DNA from: a virus
Lineage: Duplodnaviria; Heunggongvirae; Uroviricota; Caudoviricetes
Virus record (IMG/VR): IMGVR_UViG_2706794683_000008
Reading direction: 5' to 3' (one strand)
DNA length: 5,607 bases
Part shown: piece after piece, positions 1 to 5,607 of the stretch
How positions within the stretch are numbered: the first letter of the stretch is position 1
Layout of the letters: every line of letters starts with the position of its first letter
The notes under the pieces: model-generated
Databases searched by the model: none
Seen by the model: the letters and a program-made list of their open reading frames with translations, nothing else
What the model was told of the DNA's origin: nothing
Program-made: the position numbers and the translations under genes

Positions 1-410
1 GGCTGGGACGGAAGTCGCTGTCGTTCTCAAAATCGGTGGAGCTGCATGACAAAGTCATCGGGCATTATCTGAACATAAAACACTATCAATAAGTTGGAGT
101 CATTACCCGATATCCTGCTGAGAACATAAACACCCACGGATCGAGGCGTACGCTATCATGTTGCTGTGCACCGCCCAGTTTATAATTGGCGATGGTATCG
201 ATATCCATGTACCACACTGACATGTTTTAAAAAATGCAATAAGACATTGTATCTGAAAGAAAAAACAGGATTTTGAGGCGCTTTTTTATACCGTTTTCCG
301 TGTTTTTAACTGCCTGATTTTATTGAAATCTTTTTTAGTTTTGCAGAAAGGATTTTTTGCTCGATCGCTTTAATTTTATACATTCCTGATAACGGAAATT
401 TTTTTGCCCG

Positions 411-440
411 TTGACAGTTTTTGTTCTCCGGGGCTATATT
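411..440 (+). promoter_or_regulatory. Candidate sigma70-type promoter upstream of the Rha gene
   Basis: TTGACA at 411..416, 18-bp spacer, TATATT at 435..440; preceded by an AT-rich T-tract region (224..410). Sequence pattern only. Confidence 0.35.
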
Positions 441-446
441 CCTCAC

Positions 447-466
447 ACAACCGCAAAATCGGTTGT
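447..466. promoter_or_regulatory. Perfect 7-bp inverted repeat with 6-bp spacer; candidate operator or 5' hairpin at the predicted transcription start
   Basis: ACAACCG (447..453), spacer caaaat, CGGTTGT (460..466); lies just downstream of the candidate -10. Confidence 0.3.
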
Positions 467-682
467 CGGGATTGGCGTCTCGGATAACATCACAACGCAT
501 AGCCGCGTTTGCGGTTTTTTTTGCGTTAAGCATTGCCACATTCGCATTATGGTGGGGCGTGCAGGGGCGGAGAAATCCGCGCCGGGTTTTGTGATGACCG
601 GTTACGCCAACCCTGTACGTCTCACCACCTCCCTGATTGGCGTCAGAGGTGGTGATCATCCAATTAATTGGAGTCATCACAT

Positions 683-1156
683 ATGAATACAGCTATAACT
701 TTTTCTAACGAGTCACCAAAAGTCTTTTTCAAAGATGGTCGCCTGGTTACCACCTCTCAAGCTGTTGCCGACTACTTCGATAAACAACATAAACACGTTT
801 TAGCTAAGATTGACACACTCGACTGCTCTCCCGAATTTACATCAGCCAACTTTTCGGCCGATGTTCAGACTGTCGAAATTGGCAACGGCGCAGAACGTGA
901 ATCACGATGCTACCTGATCACAAAANNNNNNNNNNNNNNNNNNNNNNNNNNNNNNNNNNNNNNNNNNNNNNNNNNNNNNNNNNNNNNNNNNNNNNNNNNN
1001 NNNNNNNNNNNNNNNNNNNNNNNNNNNNNNNNNNNNNNNNNNNNNNNNNNNNNNNNNNNNNNNNNNNNNNNNNNNNNNNNNNNNNNNNNNNNNNNNTTTA
1101 TCTGGAGCAACATGGGTGGATCGTTGCCCGTAAAGAACAATTGGTGGAAAGGTTGA
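683..1156 (+). CDS. Rha-family phage regulatory protein; middle masked by N-run, C-terminus uncertain
   Basis: ATG at 683 with GGAG at 670..673. N-terminal 81 aa (MNTAITFSNESPKVFFKDGRLVTTSQAVADYFDKQHKHVLAKI...FTSANF...RCYLITK) matches the Rha domain pattern as I recall it. Reading frame runs through the 171-nt N-run (57 codons) to a TGA at 1154..1156; an alternative post-gap frame ends at 1165..1167. Confidence 0.6.
   Translation: MNTAITFSNESPKVFFKDGRLVTTSQAVADYFDKQHKHVLAKIDTLDCSPEFTSANFSADVQTVEIGNGAERESRCYLITKXXXXXXXXXXXXXXXXXXXXXXXXXXXXXXXXXXXXXXXXXXXXXXXXXXXXXXXXXFIWSNMGGSLPVKNNWWKG
926..1096. other. N-run (171 nt): masked or unsequenced, inside the Rha gene
   Basis: Run of n characters; length is a multiple of 3. 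Confidence 0.95.
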
Positions 1157-1293
1157 TGCGGTTTTAATGAATGCAAAACCCCGGATGATCACCGAGGTTA
1201 ATTTTATCGAGCGTGATTGCCGCTAATCGCCATCGCTCTGATTGAGCGTAAATCATTCAGGTTATTCAGTTCTTCCTTCTGCTCTCGCTGACG

Positions 1294-1440
1294 TCAATAA
1301 ATCCCATCATTGCGATCAACCTCATCCTTAACCATTGATGCGAGCAGTTCTTCCAGTTTCTGCGCTGACAGCTTTACCTGGTGATCTTCAGCATCTTCCC
1401 GGGCTATTGTGGTTCGCGCAGTGGCTGATTTTGCTGACAT
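1294..1440 (-). CDS. Hypothetical small protein (48 aa), weak call
   Basis: ATG at 1440..1438 to TGA at 1296..1294; hydrophilic, helix-like translation MSAKSATARTTIAREDAEDHQVKLSAQKLEELLASMVKDEVDRNDGIY. No clear Shine-Dalgarno; could also be a fragment of a degraded gene. Confidence 0.2.
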   Translation of the reverse strand: MSAKSATARTTIAREDAEDHQVKLSAQKLEELLASMVKDEVDRNDGIY

Positions 1441-1528
1441 CACCACAGGGGGCAGACGGACCATTGAACCATGGCCTCCGGAACAAATAAGGGCAAAAAT
1501 AACAACCACTATCGAAAGCTCACAAACT

Positions 1529-1672
1529 AACCGCAGCACGTTCCTGCATACGACGTGTCTGCGGCATAATCCCAATGATTACTCCCTGACAGGATTTGCA
1601 GGCCACTCAATATCAGGTGCAGTTGATGTATCAACACGATTCAACAATACCCGATATTTATTCCATGCCTCC
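1529..1672. repeat. Direct repeat copy A (~143 bp): tfa 3' end plus downstream hairpin
   Basis: Aligns by eye with 2799..2941 at roughly 85-90% identity; includes an imperfect hairpin at 1531..1564. Confidence 0.8.
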
Positions 1673-1812
1673 AGCAACGATCTTTCTTCCTCCGTTGCGA
1701 TTTCCAGATCTACAGCATCCTGCAGTGGCGCAATATACTCACTAAATTCCTGGATGTAGAACTGTGTGGTGACGGTCTTCCAGCCATTCGGCTCCTGCTG
1801 TATCGAAGCATA
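1579..1812 (-). pseudogene. Orphan 3' fragment of a tail fibre assembly (Tfa-family) gene, 77 codons plus stop
   Basis: Minus-strand translation ...[40 protein letters not shown] parallels the C-termini of the two intact tfa genes in this window (e.g. ...[35 protein letters not shown]). Bounded upstream by an in-frame stop at 1813..1815; no 5' part present. Confidence 0.6.
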
Positions 1813-1916
1813 CTAGGCTATTTCAATATCGCTATGCTGCGGCAGCATTTAACCCCTTGTAATTCATCGCCATAATTGATTTAATTCACAAATAAAACTA
1901 TAACATGGTGAAATCA

Positions 1917-2793
1917 ATGAAAACAAACACAGATGATGGGGCTAAAATTTACACACCACTTACCCTAAAGCTTTATGACTGGTGGGTTTTGGGAGTATCA
2001 AATCGGCTTGCATGGGGATGTCCTACAAAGGAACACCTTCTTCCACACTTTCTGGAACATTTAGGTAACAACCATCTGGATATTGGTGTTGGAACTGGGT
2101 TTTACCTTACTCACGTACCTGAGAGTAGTCTGATATCTTTAATGGATTTGAACGAAGCTAGCCTGAACGCGGCATCTACAAGGGCTGGGGAATCAAAAAT
2201 TAAACATAAAATTAGCCATGATGTTTTTGAACCTTATCCCGCGGCGTTACATGGTCAATTTGATTCCATTTCCATGTTTTACCTTCTTCACTGCCTGCCT
2301 GGAAATATATCTACAAAAAGCTGTGTAATACGCAATGCGGCGCAGGCCTTAACTGANNNNNNNNNNNNNNNNNNNNNNNNNNNNNNNNNNNNNNNNNNNN
2401 NNNNNNNNNNNNNNNNNNNNNNNNNNNNNNNNNNNNNNNNNNNNNNNNNNNNNNNNNNNNNNNNNNNNNNNNNNNNNNNNNNNNNNNNNNNNNNNNNNNN
2501 NNNNNNNNNNNNNNNNNNNNNNNNNNNNNNNNNNNNNNNNNNNNNNNNNNNNNNNNNNNNNNNNNNNNNNNNNNNNNGATGGAACTCTATACGGAGCCAC
2601 AATTCTTGGCGATGGAGTTGTGCACAATAGCTTCGGTCAAAAACTGATGCGCATTTACAATCAGAAAGGCATCTTTTCAAACACAAAAGATTCCGAAGAA
2701 GGCTTAACACATATACTCTCAGAGCATTTCGAGAATGTTAAAACCAGGGTTCAAGGTACTGTAGTAATGTTTTCCGCTTCAGGGAAAAAATAG
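1917..2793 (+). CDS. Class I SAM-dependent methyltransferase (Rossmann fold), interrupted by an N-run; substrate unknown
   Basis: ATG at 1917 with GGTGA 5 nt upstream (alternative ATG at 1905 lacks one). Motif I LDIGVGTG, acidic post-I residue (LMDLNE), motif II-like FDSISMFYLLHCLP, motif III-like DGTLYGATILG immediately after the gap. TAG stop at 2791..2793. It may be the e14 ymfD-type methyltransferase, but I cannot verify that from memory. Frame before the gap (codons from 1917) differs from the frame after it (codons from 2578). Confidence 0.7.
2357..2577. other. N-run (221 nt): masked or unsequenced, inside the methyltransferase gene
   Basis: Run of n characters; length is not a multiple of 3 and the coding frame differs on the two sides. 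Confidence 0.95.
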
Positions 2794-2800
2794 CATCCAA

Positions 2801-2833
2801 CCGCAGCACGTTCTTGCTTAAGACGTGCTGCGG
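2801..2833. terminator. Hairpin (11-bp perfect stem, 11-nt loop) between the convergent methyltransferase and tfa-fragment stops; possible terminator
   Basis: CCGCAGCACGT (2801..2811) pairs with ACGTGCTGCGG (2823..2833). No U-run directly after it on the plus strand; on the minus strand a T-run follows about 9 nt later. Imperfect copy at 1531..1564. Confidence 0.35.
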
Positions 2834-2847
2834 CATAATCCCAATGA

Positions 2848-2931
2848 TTACTCCCTGACAGGGTTCGTAGGCCACTCAATATCAGGTGCAGTTGATGTAT
2901 CAACACGGTTCAGCAACACCCGATACTTTTT
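2848..2931 (-). pseudogene. Orphan 3' fragment of a Tfa-family gene (27 codons plus stop), fused in frame to the invertase remnant
   Basis: Minus-strand translation [27 protein letters not shown]; TAG at 2932..2934 sits where copy A has a Trp codon (EAWNKYR versus EA*KKYR). Confidence 0.55.
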
Positions 2932-2940
2932 CTAGGCTTC

Positions 2941-3174
2941 CACCACCAGCACGACAAGATGCCGCATACAGTGCCCCAGTCAGTCCAGTTTTCAGACAAC
3001 CAGTGCGTCACCTTTTTGAAGGCGCTTTAAAGCACGTTTTAATCCAGGTCGGCCTGTCCTTGTTCCGCTTAATTTATCTTCAAATATTTGTTCATATCCT
3101 GCACAAACAAGAGCGTTTCGTTGCAGGTCTGTATTCTGGTCATTTGTTGATACCCTTACATAGCCAATCAGCAC
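2941..3174 (-). pseudogene. pin: Serine DNA invertase (Pin/Gin/Hin/Cin family) pseudogene: N-terminal catalytic region only
   Basis: GTG at 3174..3172 with GGGAGA 6 nt upstream. Translation (V)LIGYVRVSTNDQNTDLQRNALVCAGYEQIFEDKLSGTRTGRPGLKRALKRLQKGDALVV has the catalytic-Ser motif. In-frame TGA at 2992..2994 (where Trp is expected) and 2980..2982 (where Arg is expected), then degraded sequence, then fusion to the tfa fragment. The C-terminal DNA-binding domain is absent. Confidence 0.8.
3021..3081. promoter_or_regulatory. Candidate recombinational enhancer (two Fis-like sites) inside the invertase remnant
   Basis: GGCGCTTTAAAGCAC (3021..3035) and GCTTAATTTATCTTC (3067..3081): each 15 bp with G...C ends and AT-rich centre, centres 46 bp apart, 90-150 bp into the invertase coding sequence. 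Placement matches what I recall for Hin/Gin enhancers; the Fis motif is degenerate. Confidence 0.3.
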
Positions 3175-3228
3175 GCTGAATCTCCCGTCCAAAAGCACAA
3201 ATCATGCCATGCAGGCCAGAAACCGCCA

Positions 3229-3254
3229 TTATCTAAAACCTCGGTTTACGAGAA
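3229..3254. other. 26-bp crossover site for a Gin/Pin/Hin-type invertase (gix/pix-like), left boundary of the invertible segment
   Basis: TTATCTAAAACC TC GGTTTACGAGAA; its reverse complement TTCTCGTAAACCGAGGTTTTAGATAA closely matches Mu gix as I recall it (TTCCTGTAAACCGAGGTTTTGGATAA). Lies 55 bp from the invertase start, and the tail-fibre frame opens inside it. Confidence 0.8.
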
Positions 3255-4163
3255 CTCGGCACAAGCGGGGAGAAAATACCGTTACTCAGTACAGCGAATA
3301 CCTGGACTAATCGACAAACATTCAGCGGTGGCCTTTCTGGTGAACTATCCGGCAATGCTTCTACAGCTGCAAAATTAAAAACTGCCAGGAAAATAAGCAA
3401 TGTGGCTTTTGATGGTTCCTCCGATATCACATTAAAAGCAAGTCATGTTGGTGCGTTTGCCTTAGGGAAAACAGGAAGCACCGTTGCGAATGATAAAGCA
3501 GTTGGATGGAACTGGAGTAGCGGAGCCTATAACGCAACTATTAGTGGTGCATCAACGTTAATTATTCATTTTTATATGGGAGAAGGAAGTTGTCCTGCAG
3601 CTCAGTTTCGGATTAATTATAAAAATGGCGGTATTTTTTATCGTTCAGCCCGTGATGGTTATGGTTTTGAAGCCGACTGGTCCGAATTTTACACCACCAG
3701 AAAACCTTCAGCAGGAGATGTTGGTGCACTGCCGTTATCTGGTGGTCAACTGAATGGTGCACTGGGTATCGGAACATCCAGTGCTCTTGGCGGTAATTCG
3801 ATTGTATTGGGTGATAATGACACGGGCTTTAAACAAAAAGGCGATGGTAATCTGGATGTTTATGCTAATAACGTCCATGTTATGCGCTTTGTCTCCGGAA
3901 GCATTCAAAGTAATAAAACCATAAATATTACGGGACGTGTTAATCCCTCGGATTACGGTAACTTTGATTCCCGCTATGTGAGAGATGTCAGACTTGGCAC
4001 ACGAGTTGTTTAGACCATGAAGAAAGGCGTGATGTATGAAAAATCAGGCCATGTAATCACGGGGCTTGGTATTATCGGTGAAGTCGATGGTGATGATCCG
4101 GCAGTATTCAGACCAATACAAAAGTTAATTAACGGAACATGGTATAACGTATCGCAGGTATAA
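3237..4163 (+). pseudogene. Silent, promoterless tail-fibre variable C-terminal cassette with an in-frame amber codon
   Basis: Frame is open from 3237, directly after a TAA inside the crossover site, with no start or ribosome-binding site. Tail-fibre-like translation (...TFSGGLSGELSGNASTAAKLKTARKISNVAFDGSSDITLKA...). TAG at 4011..4013 interrupts a conserved C-terminal region; the same frame continues ...[47 protein letters not shown] to 4163, paralleling the expressed copy (...[18 protein letters not shown]). Confidence 0.7.
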
Positions 4164-4165
4164 TC

Positions 4166-4699
4166 ATGCAGCATTTAAAAAACATTGTCGCAGGTAATCC
4201 AAAAACCGTTGAACAATACCAGCTAACAAAGAATTTTGATGTTATCTGGTTATGGTCCGAAGATGGAAAAAATTGGCATGAGGAATTAAAAAACTTTCAG
4301 GAGGATACAATAAAACTGGCTTACACAGTTGAGGGAATAATTATTGCTATAGACAAGGATGTATCAGCAATTAATCCAGAAGGTTTAAGTGTCGTTGAGT
4401 TGCCTGATATTACAGCAAATCGCCGGGCTGATATTTCGGGCAACTGGATGTTCAAAGATGGTGCGGTGATAAAGCGAACTTATACCGAGGAAGAGCAAAG
4501 GCAACAAGCGGAAAATGAAAAGCAGAGCCTGCTGCAGCTCGTCAGGGATAAAACCCAGCTGTGGGACTCTCAGCTACAGCTGGGCATCATTTCCGATGAG
4601 AATAAACAAAAATTAACCGAGTGGATGCTCTATGCGCAGAAGGTTGAATCCACAGACACCTCCAGCCTGCCAGTAACGTTTCCCGAACAACCAGAATGA
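4166..4699 (+). CDS. tfa: Tail fibre assembly protein (Tfa family), partner of the silent cassette
   Basis: ATG 2 nt after the cassette stop; 177 aa; N-terminus [22 protein letters not shown]... closely parallels the other tfa here; typical Tfa C-terminus. Confidence 0.85.
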
Positions 4700-4702
4700 G
4701 AG

Positions 4703-4730
4703 AAGGCCCGCTATCGGGCCTTAATTTTTA
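4703..4730. terminator. Hairpin terminator between the two convergent tfa genes
   Basis: AAGGCCCG (4703..4710), loop ctat, CGGGCCTT (4715..4722), followed by AATTTTTA on the plus strand; sits between the stops at 4697..4699 and 4728..4730. Confidence 0.5.
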
Positions 4731-5255
4731 TTCAGGCTTTTGTGGCCATTCAGGATTTGCCGTATCCACACGGCTGACCAGAACACTGTAGCGTTCCCAT
4801 GCTTCCAGTCGTGTGCGTTCCTCGTCTGTTGCCATATTCAGCCTGACAGCTCGTTCCAGCGGCTGGATGACTGATTCAGCTTCGGAAAGCAATGCGGCCT
4901 TTTGTGATTCGGCCTGTTGTTGCAGTTCCTGTTCTGTATATTCCCTCTTTACTACTTTACCATCCAGAAACATCCATTTTCCGTTATTGTCTGCGTGACG
5001 ATTTGCCGTAATATCAGGAACTTCAACTATGCTTAGCCCTTCAGGATTAATAGTTGAAACGTCTTTACTGACAGCAACGATGATGTTGTTCTCATCGTAA
5101 GCAATTTTTATGGTGTCTGGCTGAAAATTCTTTTGTTCCTCATACCAGTTTTTGCCATCTTCGCAAAAGAGCCATACCACGCCCGCTTTTTTAGTTAGCT
5201 GGTATTGTTCCGGTGTTTTCGGATTCCCGGCCTTAATATTTTTCAGGTGCATCAT
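4728..5255 (-). CDS. tfa: Tail fibre assembly protein (Tfa family), partner of the expressed tail fibre
   Basis: ATG at 5255..5253, 1 nt after the tail-fibre TAA, with GGGGAG upstream; translation [22 protein letters not shown]...[13 protein letters not shown]. The track ORF beginning at 5291 is an upstream in-frame extension. Confidence 0.85.
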
Positions 5256-5256
5256 C

Positions 5257-5607
5257 TTAAACACTCCCCACGTTGTACCATATTCCCCCAATCAATTTCT
5301 GAATTGGCCTTCTGGCAACAGTGTCGACAATATCATCCGCATTGCTGTTAATTGCGGCTGTTAAAACATAACCTGACGCATCGCCAAAGCCGTAGTCGCG
5401 CCATACGTTTTTATATTCAATGCTGCCAAGACGAATATCCCGAACGACATGATTATGCAGCCATGTGCTTAACCAGTTGTTTTCCCACACTGAACCATAA
5501 ATATCGCCACTAGACGCAACTTGCGCACCACTTCCCAGCGCAAATTGAGGTAGCCTGAGTTTAACGGACACTCCTTCCTGAAATAGAATGGCATCAGAAG
5601 GAGCTAA
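5257..5607 (-). CDS. Tail fibre protein, C-terminal part (5' end beyond the window); the copy in expression orientation
   Basis: Minus-strand frame is open from the window edge ([12 protein letters not shown]...) to TAA at 5259..5257; C-terminus ...[18 protein letters not shown] parallels the silent cassette. Confidence 0.8.

Follow-up and report, generated by a model that had tools for sequence, protein, structure and literature searches.

In a stretch of viral DNA of 5,607 nucleotides (Caudoviricetes; IMG/VR record IMGVR_UViG_2706794683_000008; the whole stretch is hereafter the window) a methyltransferase gene lies between two direct copies of the 3' end of tfa, a fibre-chaperone gene, each followed by a hairpin. 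How did a cargo gene come to be bracketed in this way? A first-pass annotation, made from the letters alone, saw here the scar of a modular recombination that had inserted the gene at a boundary between tfa and an invertase gene. We find a decayed lambdoid prophage at ompW, of which the region forms the junction between the b region and the side tail fibres, with layered recombination scars (Table 1). Both the scar type and the locus are already known, and the arrangement is an ordinary, annotated recombination scar of lambda-like E. coli prophages.

Table 1. Positions of the features discussed, in window coordinates
Feature	Position	Strand	Details
3' remnant of another tail-fibre-module gene (DUF4376 / phrog_1141-type 'tail fiber protein')	1204..1482	-	internal stop
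Repeat copy A	1529..1678	-	last ~30 tfa codons, stop 1581-1579, 14-nt spacer, hairpin 1531-1564
Hairpin A, putative terminator	1531..1564	-	arms 1531-1541 and 1553-1557 + 1559-1564; T1558 bulged
TfaX-like chimeric ORF, pseudogene here	1579..1848	-	Caudo_TAP match, K-12 TfaX alignment, phrog_2341
ybcY cassette (putative moron)	1818..2798	+	ORF 1905/1917-2793, predicted class I SAM-dependent methyltransferase
Repeat copy B	2799..2947	-	hairpin 2801-2833, spacer, stop 2850-2848, last ~30 tfa codons
Hairpin B	2801..2833	-	11 + 3 bp, GCUU loop; fold -34.4 kcal/mol, z=-5.3 (tfa-sense strand)
Pin/Gin-family serine invertase remnant	2946..3177	-	codons 1-79 of ~199, two in-frame stops
hix/pix-like 26-bp recombination site	3229..3254	+	TTATCTAAAACCTCGGTTTACGAGAA; left edge of invertible tail-fibre segment
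Invertible-segment content	3255..5607	.	ORFs, Pfam gp37_C and Caudo_TAP, an inverted repeat, L001/L002 annotation
Alternative fibre C-terminus	to 4013	+	
tfa	4166..4699	+	
tfa	4728..5255	-	
Fibre C-terminus	5257 to beyond 5607	-	

Two direct copies of a tfa 3' end

A repeat search of the window returned a direct repeat in two parts, 118 nt at 90% identity (1559-1676 vs 2828-2945) and 29 nt, also at 90% (1529-1557 vs 2799-2827), the two being offset by one base. MAFFT joined them into a single continuous repeat from 1529/2799 to ~1678/2947, with a sole indel of 1 nt (the extra T at 1558), and the copies are ~90% identical over ~148 bp (BLAST E ~1e-48 to 1e-50). The minus strand of each copy carries the last 27-30 tfa codons, the stop and a stable hairpin of 11-14 bp. 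Repeat search, MAFFT and BLAST thus bear out the claim of two direct, homologous tfa 3' ends with their hairpins. A functional tfa is a complete ORF of ~175-195 codons that includes the N-terminal part and lies downstream of stf; neither copy is of this kind. At most 54-64 tfa codons are left in copy A and ~30 in copy B, and both lack the 5' part, as had been noted at first pass, and an adjacent stf. In copy A, residues 18-73 of the 76-residue translation of 1579-1809 align with positions 75-130 of the 131-position Pfam profile Caudo_TAP (PF02413, E=3.6e-25), and copy B has an in-frame TAG at 2934-2932 (TGG to TAG).

The first-pass annotation had set aside a target-site duplication, and rightly so, for repeats of ~148 bp that are 90% identical and made of gene ends and a putative terminator are too long and too diverged. 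Transposable elements are recognized by identical repeats of 2-14 bp, terminal inverted repeats and a transposase; here the sole ORF is a methyltransferase of the small-molecule type, and the repeat search of the window found no inverted repeats at the cassette edges.

The pair could have come from an in situ tandem duplication of the tfa 3' end and hairpin within one phage, followed by decay of the copies and later insertion of the methyltransferase gene, ybcY. Such an origin would account for the direct orientation and for the coding end and hairpin being common to both copies, and repeats of this size can arise from replication slippage or unequal crossing-over. The codons, however, do not look like those of decaying duplicates: the 11 nucleotide differences between A and B fall in 10 codons, 7 of them changed synonymously and 3 non-synonymously (including the nonsense change). 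Because the divergence is mostly synonymous, most of it appears to have arisen under selection, in two once-functional tfa alleles. Over its last 31 codons, moreover, copy B departs from the functional tfa of PhiR26_1 and phage 204576 at 1 nt, the TGG to TAG change; there this sequence ends a full-length tfa of 194 aa followed by stf-lom-J, and B-type ends are found in full-length tfa of independent phages. Copy A has a different left flank, and 35 nt of its hairpin recur unchanged in a hairpin of the lambda b region; ybcY adjoins the hairpin even where copy A is missing (STEC299). Duplication in situ is, thus, distinctly unlikely; copy A is probably an older remnant, from a different tfa allele. 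The extent of both copies differs among genomes: copy A may reach all the way to 1529 or stop short, at 1602 (appY side) or 1624 (hydrolase side), and B ranges from a bare hairpin (2833), through an end at 2921 or ~170 nt, to full length.

The tfa coding of copy A had been read as running on to 1812. The open frame does reach the TAG at 1815-1813, but homology to tfa ends at ~1743, with 15 nucleotide differences in the last 54 codons and 15 in the next 10. The frame is chimeric: its ~10 first codons (1848-1818) come from the ybcY cassette, and 1743-1579 is the true tfa 3' end (54 codons and the stop). A non-exhaustive search for A-type alleles found no full-length tfa with the 74-nt stretch 1744-1817. 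Relatives have TGG in place of the TAG and start the ORF with ATG at 1848, as TfaX of K-12 does; the intact phage version matches phrog_2341 (E=5e-56). Because of the TAG, the TfaX-like ORF is a pseudogene here.

We considered whether this remnant is kept for a function: it might yield a small TfaX protein, or the predicted sRNA IS009, in divergent co-regulation with ybcY. The chimeric ORF has its own ATG and its own PHROG family, the divergent spacer is bound by RpoD and H-NS in K-12 (PMC3946193), and the tfa'A/ybcY joint occurs in 3437 of 5426 complete E. coli genomes (63%). That prevalence, however, is accounted for by linkage to ybcY and ompT in DLP12-type prophages, the C-terminus of the ORF varies by lineage with the cuts in copy A, and the window has the nonsense codon. 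The Rfam match to IS009 (RF02111; 110.8 bits at 1622-1825, minus strand), which speaks for an RNA, lies below the gathering score of 117, and the family is itself a computational candidate built on the same locus. We consider retention for function very unlikely. As RNA genes the Rfam matches were rejected: the IS009 match coincides with the tfa remnant itself, with a second match of 46.4 bits at 2891-2970 (minus strand), and a CssrB match at hairpin B is weak and partial.

The ybcY cassette and the hairpins beside it

A run of 221 N (2357-2577) breaks the methyltransferase ORF and corresponds to a single base in every intact homologue, and the window has a further N run at 926-1096; the true length of the cassette is ~760 bp. 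Its edges were mapped from STEC299, in which ybcY lies beside ompT, copy A is absent and homology begins at 1818-1822, and from PhiR49_2 and Ayreon. The product belongs to phrog_2132 (E=4e-157; RefSeq WP_000240999.1) and scores above the Pfam cut-offs for Methyltransf_12 (E=4e-9), _23, _25 and _11, and the annotations of PhiR26_1 and PhiR68_2 carry 'YbcY' notes on the homologue. PDB matches are weak (UbiG and juvenile-hormone acid methyltransferase, E ~1e-3). We also considered YbcY as a defence or DNA-modification enzyme and rejected this, as it has no PADLOC family (mad2 at E=0.009 only) and no NCBIfam equivalog, and the PDB matches are marginal; it is not recognisable as a DNA methyltransferase.

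Upstream of the gene we noted a putative promoter, TTGATT (1876-1881) and TATAAC (1899-1904) separated by a 17-nt spacer. The consensus promoter scan passed over it; an RpoD-holoenzyme (SELEX) promoter of identical sequence is listed for ybcY in K-12, where H-NS binding is recorded in the ybcY/tfaX spacer (PMC3946193). The G+C content differs modestly, ~0.38-0.44 in ybcY vs ~0.47-0.50 in the tfa remnants. The gene is found in ~60% of complete E. coli genomes and also in viable phages, and among otherwise collinear relatives it comes and goes, being absent from PhiR49_2 and lambda and internally deleted in Ayreon. In every context seen, its 3' end lies a few bases before the conserved tfa hairpin. 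The gene behaves as a moron of ~760 bp with its own predicted sigma-70 promoter. The 148-bp repeats are likely to offer a route to its loss by occasional homologous pop-out, and likely lie behind assembly breaks in the region. PhiR49_2, with a solo hairpin and tfa remnant, could be either naive or a pop-out product, and the STEC299 type could be a derived deletion instead of the donor arrangement.

On the tfa-sense strand hairpin A folds at -26.6 kcal/mol (z=-3.0) and is followed by UUAGUUUGUGAGCUUUCG; hairpin B is followed by UUGGAUGCUAUUUUUU. Hairpin A was flagged by the minus-strand terminator scan. Hairpin B begins 8 nt past the ybcY stop codon and is common to the convergent ybcY and tfa. 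The tfa strand has an imperfect U-tract and the ybcY strand, outside Turner-type phages, none: Turner and PhiR68_2 lose homology precisely at 2833, and the ybcY strand there continues with a run of TTTTT. The hairpin of Turner is an A/B hybrid. All 8 variants examined retain the stem, with one compensatory change (CG to AU); a covariation test on these 8 was not significant, 58 of 500 shuffles matching the single compensatory pair. Together with its left flank, the hairpin forms a non-coding element at the end of the tail region in 157 phage records, and occurs twice in lambda. Both hairpins are candidate terminators, and hairpin A is probably the one that closes the late (tail) operon. A 45-aa 'hypothetical protein' annotated over hairpin B is not to be taken for a gene.

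Hairpins that bracket a gene might instead be sites for a recombinase, integron attC-like or IS200/IS605-like, which would make the bounded unit a mobile cassette, with ybcY and lambda ea47 as examples. Direct hairpin copies do bracket cargo both here and in lambda (ea31-hairpin-ea47-hairpin-tfa), inter-phage homology breaks exactly at the hairpin edges 1529 and 2833, and hairpin A has a bulged base. We, however, found neither an integron integrase nor TnpA(Y1) nor any other recombinase candidate in the vicinity, and on inspection of the sequence the stem lacks flanking paired attC R'/R'' core sites. Copy A includes at least 165 nt of tfa coding, and site-specific recombination at the hairpin would not account for the duplication of this stretch. 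A terminator suits both the U-rich tails and the location behind the last tail gene. We hold the mobile-cassette reading to be extremely improbable. An integron cassette in the strict sense (RYYYAAC ... GTTRRRY) was rejected by inspection: the minus strand has GTTGGAT after hairpin B but no complementary RYYYAAC before it. No tyrosine recombinase was found in the window.

More speculatively, the tfa 3' end, the late-operon hairpin and ~25 nt of left flank (~150-200 nt in all) may be more than a passive scar: lambdoid phages could use it time and again as a docking sequence, acquiring, shedding and exchanging b-region cargo as well as fibre modules by Red/RecET-type recombination over short homologies. 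We think this unlikely. If it were true, hairpin-bracketed genes (ybcY here, ea47 in lambda) would make up a definable class of exchangeable cassettes, and in a bolder form the retained TfaX/IS009 remnant could itself be functional together with ybcY.

The invertase remnant and the order of events

To the right, copy B is fused to a pin/gin-type remnant, as the first-pass annotation had it, which keeps 79 of ~199 codons. The remnant has 85% protein identity to intact invertase and, against Mu-like and P2-like invertases, 93-95% DNA identity. Its junction with tfa'B, at ~2946-2950, passes through a common G-GAA microhomology, and RefSeq labels the remnant 'recombinase family protein, missing C-terminus'. 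An intact recombinase has ~190 aa; with codons 1-79 only, fused to tfa'B, the pin gene is dead. Since pin is cut to 79 codons with two stops, inversion of the fibre segment could be driven only in trans. The hix/pix-like site beyond it is unique in the window (0 expected by chance). The partner site of the window would fall beyond its 3' end, and a homologous locus (L002) supplies the second site: inside stf, at a distance of 3055 nt, there is an inverted partner of 32 nt with 84% complementarity. Inter-genome homology breaks at ~3249. On the other side of ybcY, the outermost of three 3' remnants stacked on the minus strand matches the C-terminal part of phrog_7703 (E=6.8e-25) and phrog_1141 'tail fiber protein' (E=5.6e-21), and RefSeq treats the homologous stretch as a DUF4376 pseudogene.

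The first-pass annotation proposed that one modular recombination event had put the methyltransferase at an existing tfa/invertase boundary. The direct fusion of copy B to the pin remnant fits this, as do Turner and PhiR68_2, which have ybcY, the hairpin and then a pin gene ~1 kb away. But tfa'A-ybcY-hairpin-tfaB exists without the invertase in K-12 DLP12 and in live phages (PhiR26_1, 204576, 2G7b, ev243), and the pin joint is internal to both genes, with microhomology only. It is also ~6 times rarer than the ybcY joint (538 genomes vs 3437), a distribution that argues for the opposite order. Insertion at the boundary is, in our estimate, highly improbable. Given the block without invertase elsewhere and the relative frequency of the joints, the invertase fusion would be a later, separate illegitimate join. 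The wider idea, that modular (mosaic) recombination left its scar about a cargo gene, is supported, and the same block is present in K-12 DLP12 and live phages. Relatives of the kind that would speak against the first-pass reading were found in part: STEC299 has ompT-ybcY without copy A, and PhiR49_2 has a solo hairpin and tfa remnant without ybcY.

From the homologies, the breakpoints and their distribution, the stability of the hairpins and the intact arrangement elsewhere, we infer the direction and order of events as follows, and consider this four-step account probable. The ybcY gene would be a moron, with its own sigma-70 promoter and ORF, that converges with tfa on the hairpin after the last gene of the tail operon. 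Copy B would be the residue of the phage's own functional tfa, and copy A the 3' end and putative terminator of a different tfa allele. While two lambdoid phages exchanged a neighbouring b-region or fibre module, a non-homologous joint may have fused the middle of an A-type tfa to the upstream edge of the ybcY cassette (~1818), leaving copy A behind; this single old tfa'A/ybcY joint would then have spread through homologous recombination. The conserved tfa-3'/hairpin stretch would serve as a homology 'linker' for module exchange. Later, in one sublineage, an illegitimate join over 4-5 nt of microhomology would have linked codon -30 of tfaB to codon 79 of a pin gene from an invertible fibre cassette, removing the 5' part of tfa and killing pin.

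The locus has little import beyond careful annotation, for which the fragments should not be read as genes. It is a textbook case of the mosaic assembly of lambdoid prophages: at every successive swap at the tail-fibre/b-region boundary the earlier fibre-chaperone gene would stay behind as a 3' stump, three in a row here, with a one-gene moron beside the putative late-operon terminator.

Comparison with known prophages and phages

The closest known system is tfaD-ybcY-tfaX of the DLP12 prophage (E. coli K-12 MG1655, b0561-b0563), which has the three elements in the same order and orientation. Collinear BLAST across both ybcY joints gave 96-99% identity to K-12 and seven phages, placing the window in the DLP12-type module; against K-12, 1602-2356 (the tfa'A/ybcY joint) is 96% identical and 2578-2945 (ybcY 3' end, hairpin and tfa) 98%. 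The K-12 order is tfaD-ybcY'-tfaX-appY-ompT. Unlike here, ybcY is a pseudogene in K-12, tfaX (copy A) stops at the counterpart of 1602, where it adjoins the appY region, and has no hairpin of its own, and copy B is part of a longer tfaD fused to a terminase remnant. The window has all of copy A, hairpin included, and 30 codons of copy B fused to pin', and the prophage is at ompW.

The same tfa'A-ybcY-hairpin series, at 97-99% identity, is present in the viable lambdoid phages PhiR26_1 (PV340555), 204576 (CP025907), Nesevirus 2G7b, ev243, Turner, Kati and PhiR68_2, between the b region (int, ompT, hydrolase or appY) and the side-tail-fibre genes. Their right-hand neighbours differ, being a full-length tfa-stf in PhiR26_1 and 204576, a short tfa'B and then unrelated fibre modules in 2G7b and ev243, and a Rac-like ynaE-pin(+)-tfa(-) straight after the hairpin in Turner and PhiR68_2. 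The pin'-tfa'B fusion occurs in none of these phages.

Morons of lambdoid phages were reportedly described by Juhala and co-workers in 2000. Like them (reviewed in PMC3594210), ybcY is one extra gene with its own predicted promoter, beside a predicted terminator, carried by some phages and missing from close relatives, in a non-essential region after the tail genes and with somewhat lower G+C. Unlike them, it has no terminator of its own and would depend on the resident hairpin downstream of tfa.

On the invertible side, the pin-hix-Sv-tfa / tfa'-Sv' layout is that of e14 and the Mu G-segment, with the difference from Pin/Gin/Cin/Hin systems that the invertase is truncated and interrupted by stops. 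Mosaic exchange of tail-fibre and tfa genes among lambda, P2, Mu, P1 and e14 is said to have been described by Haggard-Ljungquist (1992) and Sandmeier (1992), and the locus resembles it in that conserved tfa 3' ends are common to unrelated phages.

Two direct copies of a tfa 3′ end and hairpin

A repeat search of the window returned two pairs of matches (1559-1676 against 2828-2945, 118 nt, 90%; 1529-1557 against 2799-2827, 29 nt, 90%), spaced by 1269 and 1270, and MAFFT aligned them as a single continuous repeat, from 1529/2799 to ~1678/2947, with one 1-nt indel. Its two copies, A and B, matched each other with BLAST E-values of ~1e-48 to 1e-50. The minus strand of copy A encodes a Caudo_TAP (lambda Tfa family) C-terminus (E=3.6e-25), and in both copies 14 nt separate the tfa stop from a stable hairpin. 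Repeat search, alignment, BLAST, minus-strand translation and folding thus bear out the direct repeats of a tfa 3′ end and hairpin described in the first-pass annotation.

Positions of individual features in the window
Feature	Position	Strand	Remarks
IS1, right end	1-108		
ompW 3′ fragment	~101-226		abutted by the IS1 end; mark of prophage attachment site
c4-a1b1 targets	434-486	+	Rfam
isrK	447-521	+	Rfam 72 bits, gathering score 50
C4 antisense RNA	545-632	+	Rfam 75.9 bits, gathering score 45
Rha	683-1156		
N run	926-1096		171 N against 244 nt in 99%-identical genomes
Hairpin A	1531-1564	- (tfa-sense)	T1558 bulged; folding -26.6 kcal/mol, z=-3.0
tfa end-to-cassette stretch	1744-1817	-	~74 nt, 25 residues encoded; between demonstrable tfa end and ybcY-cassette edge
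Putative ybcY promoter	1876-1904		exact sequence present
N run	2357-2577		221 N
WP_001309429.1	2738-2875	-	RefSeq, 45-aa hypothetical protein
Hairpin B	2801-2833	- (tfa-sense)	folding -34.4 kcal/mol, z=-5.3
hix/pix-like 26-mer	3229-3254		adjoins dead pin gene

Copy B differs from the functional tfa 3′ ends of PhiR26_1 and 204576 by 1 nt in 31 codons (TGG to TAG), which identifies it as the stump left by the phage's own tfa. Its reported fusion to an invertase remnant is confirmed: the stump passes straight into codons 1-79 of a ~199-codon Pin/Gin-type enzyme, 85% identical to an intact one and carrying two in-frame stops.

Copy A differs from tfa at 15 positions in the last 54 codons, and then at 15 in the next 10. 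It had been proposed that its tfa coding runs on to an in-frame stop; the frame is indeed open to TAG at 1815-1813, but nucleotide homology to tfa ends near 1743. The stretch beyond could be a highly diverged central part of tfa, or else filler DNA picked up at the original illegitimate joint. Relatives have TGG in place of the TAG, with the ORF starting from the ATG at 1848. Since homology to STEC299 begins at 1818-1822, the first ~10 codons of this minus-strand ORF, TfaX, belong to the cassette of the methyltransferase gene ybcY, and TfaX is chimeric. A functional product of TfaX or of IS009 is conceivable but unsupported, given that C-termini vary between elements, that the window copy has a nonsense codon, and that IS009, with an Rfam score of 110.8, falls short of its gathering score (117).

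Ten codons, with 11 nt in all, differ between the copies; seven changed synonymously and three did not (one to a nonsense codon). This bias indicates that the copies diverged while both genes were functional, and so represent two alleles and not a local duplicate in decay. Duplication in situ is disfavoured by the same bias, and by the different flanks of A and B. As judged from the sequences, copy A appears to be an older stump, independent of copy B. Left of hairpin A lies a further minus-strand 3′ stump, of a fibre-module gene (DUF4376/phrog_1141), making three stacked stumps within 1204-2947. Complete copy A with the DUF4376 flank recurs at 99% identity or more in ~800 records. Phage 204576 shares with the window a copy A that is complete as far as 1529; in K-12 and PhiR68_2 the copy breaks off at 1602, where it meets the appY side, and in 2G7b, ev243, Turner and PhiR26_1 it breaks off at 1624, where it meets the hydrolase side.

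The ybcY cassette and the hairpin element

The product of the cargo gene, YbcY (WP_000240999.1), has by profile match a Methyltransf_12-type class I SAM-dependent methyltransferase domain, and falls in phrog_2132, a family with no function assigned. Profile searches returned no NCBIfam equivalog and no PADLOC family, and among solved structures only small-molecule O-methyltransferases were similar, marginally. A genomic-SELEX study records for ybcY a constitutive RpoD promoter, TTGATT-17-TATAAC, and H-NS binding to the divergent ybcY/tfaX spacer (PMC3946193); the promoter sequence is present in the window. The ORF is broken there by an N run in place of the single C of every intact homologue. 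The lengths of both N runs disagree with the sequence replaced in 99%-identical genomes, and both look like scaffold gaps or masks. Running over the 3′ end of ybcY, hairpin B and the tfa stump, on the opposite strand, the RefSeq call WP_001309429.1 is almost certainly spurious.

ybcY converges on tfa, and 8 nt lie between the end of ybcY and the hairpin that follows tfa. In STEC299, ybcY directly follows ompT, without copy A. PhiR49_2 lacks ybcY and has a solo hairpin and tfa stump, flanked on the left by A/lambda-type sequence. Ayreon (about 3945-4090) keeps the ybcY upstream region and last 35 nt, the gene body being gone; this is an internal-deletion derivative of the module, after which comes a 63-codon tfa stump annotated as a hypothetical protein. 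Together, these two phages put the right cassette edge at most a few nucleotides from the ybcY stop codon. The cassette measures ~760 bp, with a somewhat lower G+C (~0.38-0.44) than the tfa stumps (~0.47-0.50).

At the end of the tail-gene region, the hairpin and the ~25 nt to its left form a conserved non-coding element that is widespread. Together with the conserved tfa 3′ end, it occurs in 157 phage records, either closing the tail region or beside attP. Lambda (J02459) has the hairpin twice in direct orientation (1418-1452 and 3001-3044), after tfa and, in the b region, between ea31 and ea47, so that ea47 is bracketed like ybcY. Hairpin A is identical to the ea31/ea47 copy (35/35) and shares ~24 nt of its left flank; the post-tfa hairpin is a third variant, with a compensatory C-G to A-T change. 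The element overlaps the annotated attP in HK633 (2478-2562), and in Stx phages lies near the prophage end, beyond NleG cargo (Stx2a_WGPS4, 505-578). A mobile cassette targeted to hairpins is disfavoured: neither a recombinase nor core sites are present, and it would not account for the doubling of 165 nt of coding sequence. We infer that the tfa 3′ end, hairpin and left flank probably serve as a homology patch linking swapped modules, the hairpin being a putative terminator.

Prophage setting and invertible segment

The window comes from a prophage remnant that occupies ompW in E. coli, beside the trp operon, and is common in ST131 and other lineages; 108-3997 is 99% identical to E. coli relatives. 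RefSeq annotates the homologous stretch as ash, Rha, a DUF4376 pseudogene, a tfa pseudogene, a class I SAM methyltransferase, a second tfa pseudogene, a recombinase pseudogene, a tail-fibre fragment, two convergent tfa and a long stf (minus strand). The best relatives lack IS1 here, since their match begins at 108; of 5426 genomes, 5378 have matches to the IS1 end itself, with a median of 10 sites per genome. A 20-nt match (85%) between the IS1 terminal inverted repeat (87-106) and sequence just upstream of the rha start (661-680) is probably due to chance. The C4/isrK RNA matches, just upstream of the ash/Rha genes, mark a P1/P7-type antisense-RNA immunity/antirepressor module.

The pin remnant is part of an e14/Mu-G-type invertible fibre cassette. 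In the homologous ST131 locus the hix-like site has an inverted partner inside stf, 3055 nt away (8883-8914 and 11970-12001), with alternative fibre C-termini and convergent tfa genes between them. The pair delimits a ~3.1-kb invertible tail-fibre segment, whose flipping would now be possible only with an invertase in trans.

Proposed order of events and known arrangements

Of 5426 complete E. coli genomes, 3437 carry the joint between truncated tfa of copy A (tfa′A) and ybcY (1740-1930), at 80% coverage or more, and 538 carry that between copy B and pin (2885-3005). The latter is internal to both genes, which have only G-GAA in common there; with these frequencies, this points to the invertase fusion as a later, lineage-restricted illegitimate join. 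Viable lambdoid phages hold the block at 97-99% identity: as int-ompT-hydrolase-tfa′-ybcY followed by other fibre genes (2G7b and ev243, Nesevirus), as tfa′-ybcY-hairpin followed by ynaE-pin(+)-tfa(-)-stf(-) (Turner, PhiR68_2), or as tfa′(-), ybcY(+), a full 194-aa tfa(-), stf, lom and J (PhiR26_1), a layout to which 204576 adds the window's complete copy A and left flank. The uninterrupted arrangement sought in relatives is thus found, as a full tfa beyond ybcY, in PhiR26_1 and 204576. The first-pass annotation proposed one insertion of ybcY at the tfa/invertase boundary; the joint distribution and the intact arrangements without pin fusion disfavour that site, while the observation, and part of its interpretation, stand.

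What the analysis shows directly are the homologies, the breakpoints, their frequencies and the stability of the hairpins; the polarity that follows we infer. ybcY would first have been a b-region moron directly against the putative terminator downstream of tfa. A non-homologous joint of the middle of another phage's tfa to the upstream cassette edge would have produced tfa′A-ybcY-hairpin-tfaB (tfaB being the tfa that ends in copy B), and this single joint would have spread among lambdoid phages and prophages by homologous recombination, further swaps trimming both stumps differently in each lineage. Joining to pin through microhomology would then have cost the ompW prophage lineage most of tfaB. 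We consider this scheme as a whole likely.

The feature is real, has an ordinary explanation and is already annotated in kind and in locus. In the DLP12 prophage of K-12, ybcY is a pseudogene lying between tfaD and tfaX, beyond which come appY and ompT, so the bracketed arrangement is already in the E. coli K-12 reference annotation. The cassette has the anatomy of a moron (PMC3594210), but differs in that ybcY borrows the resident putative terminator.
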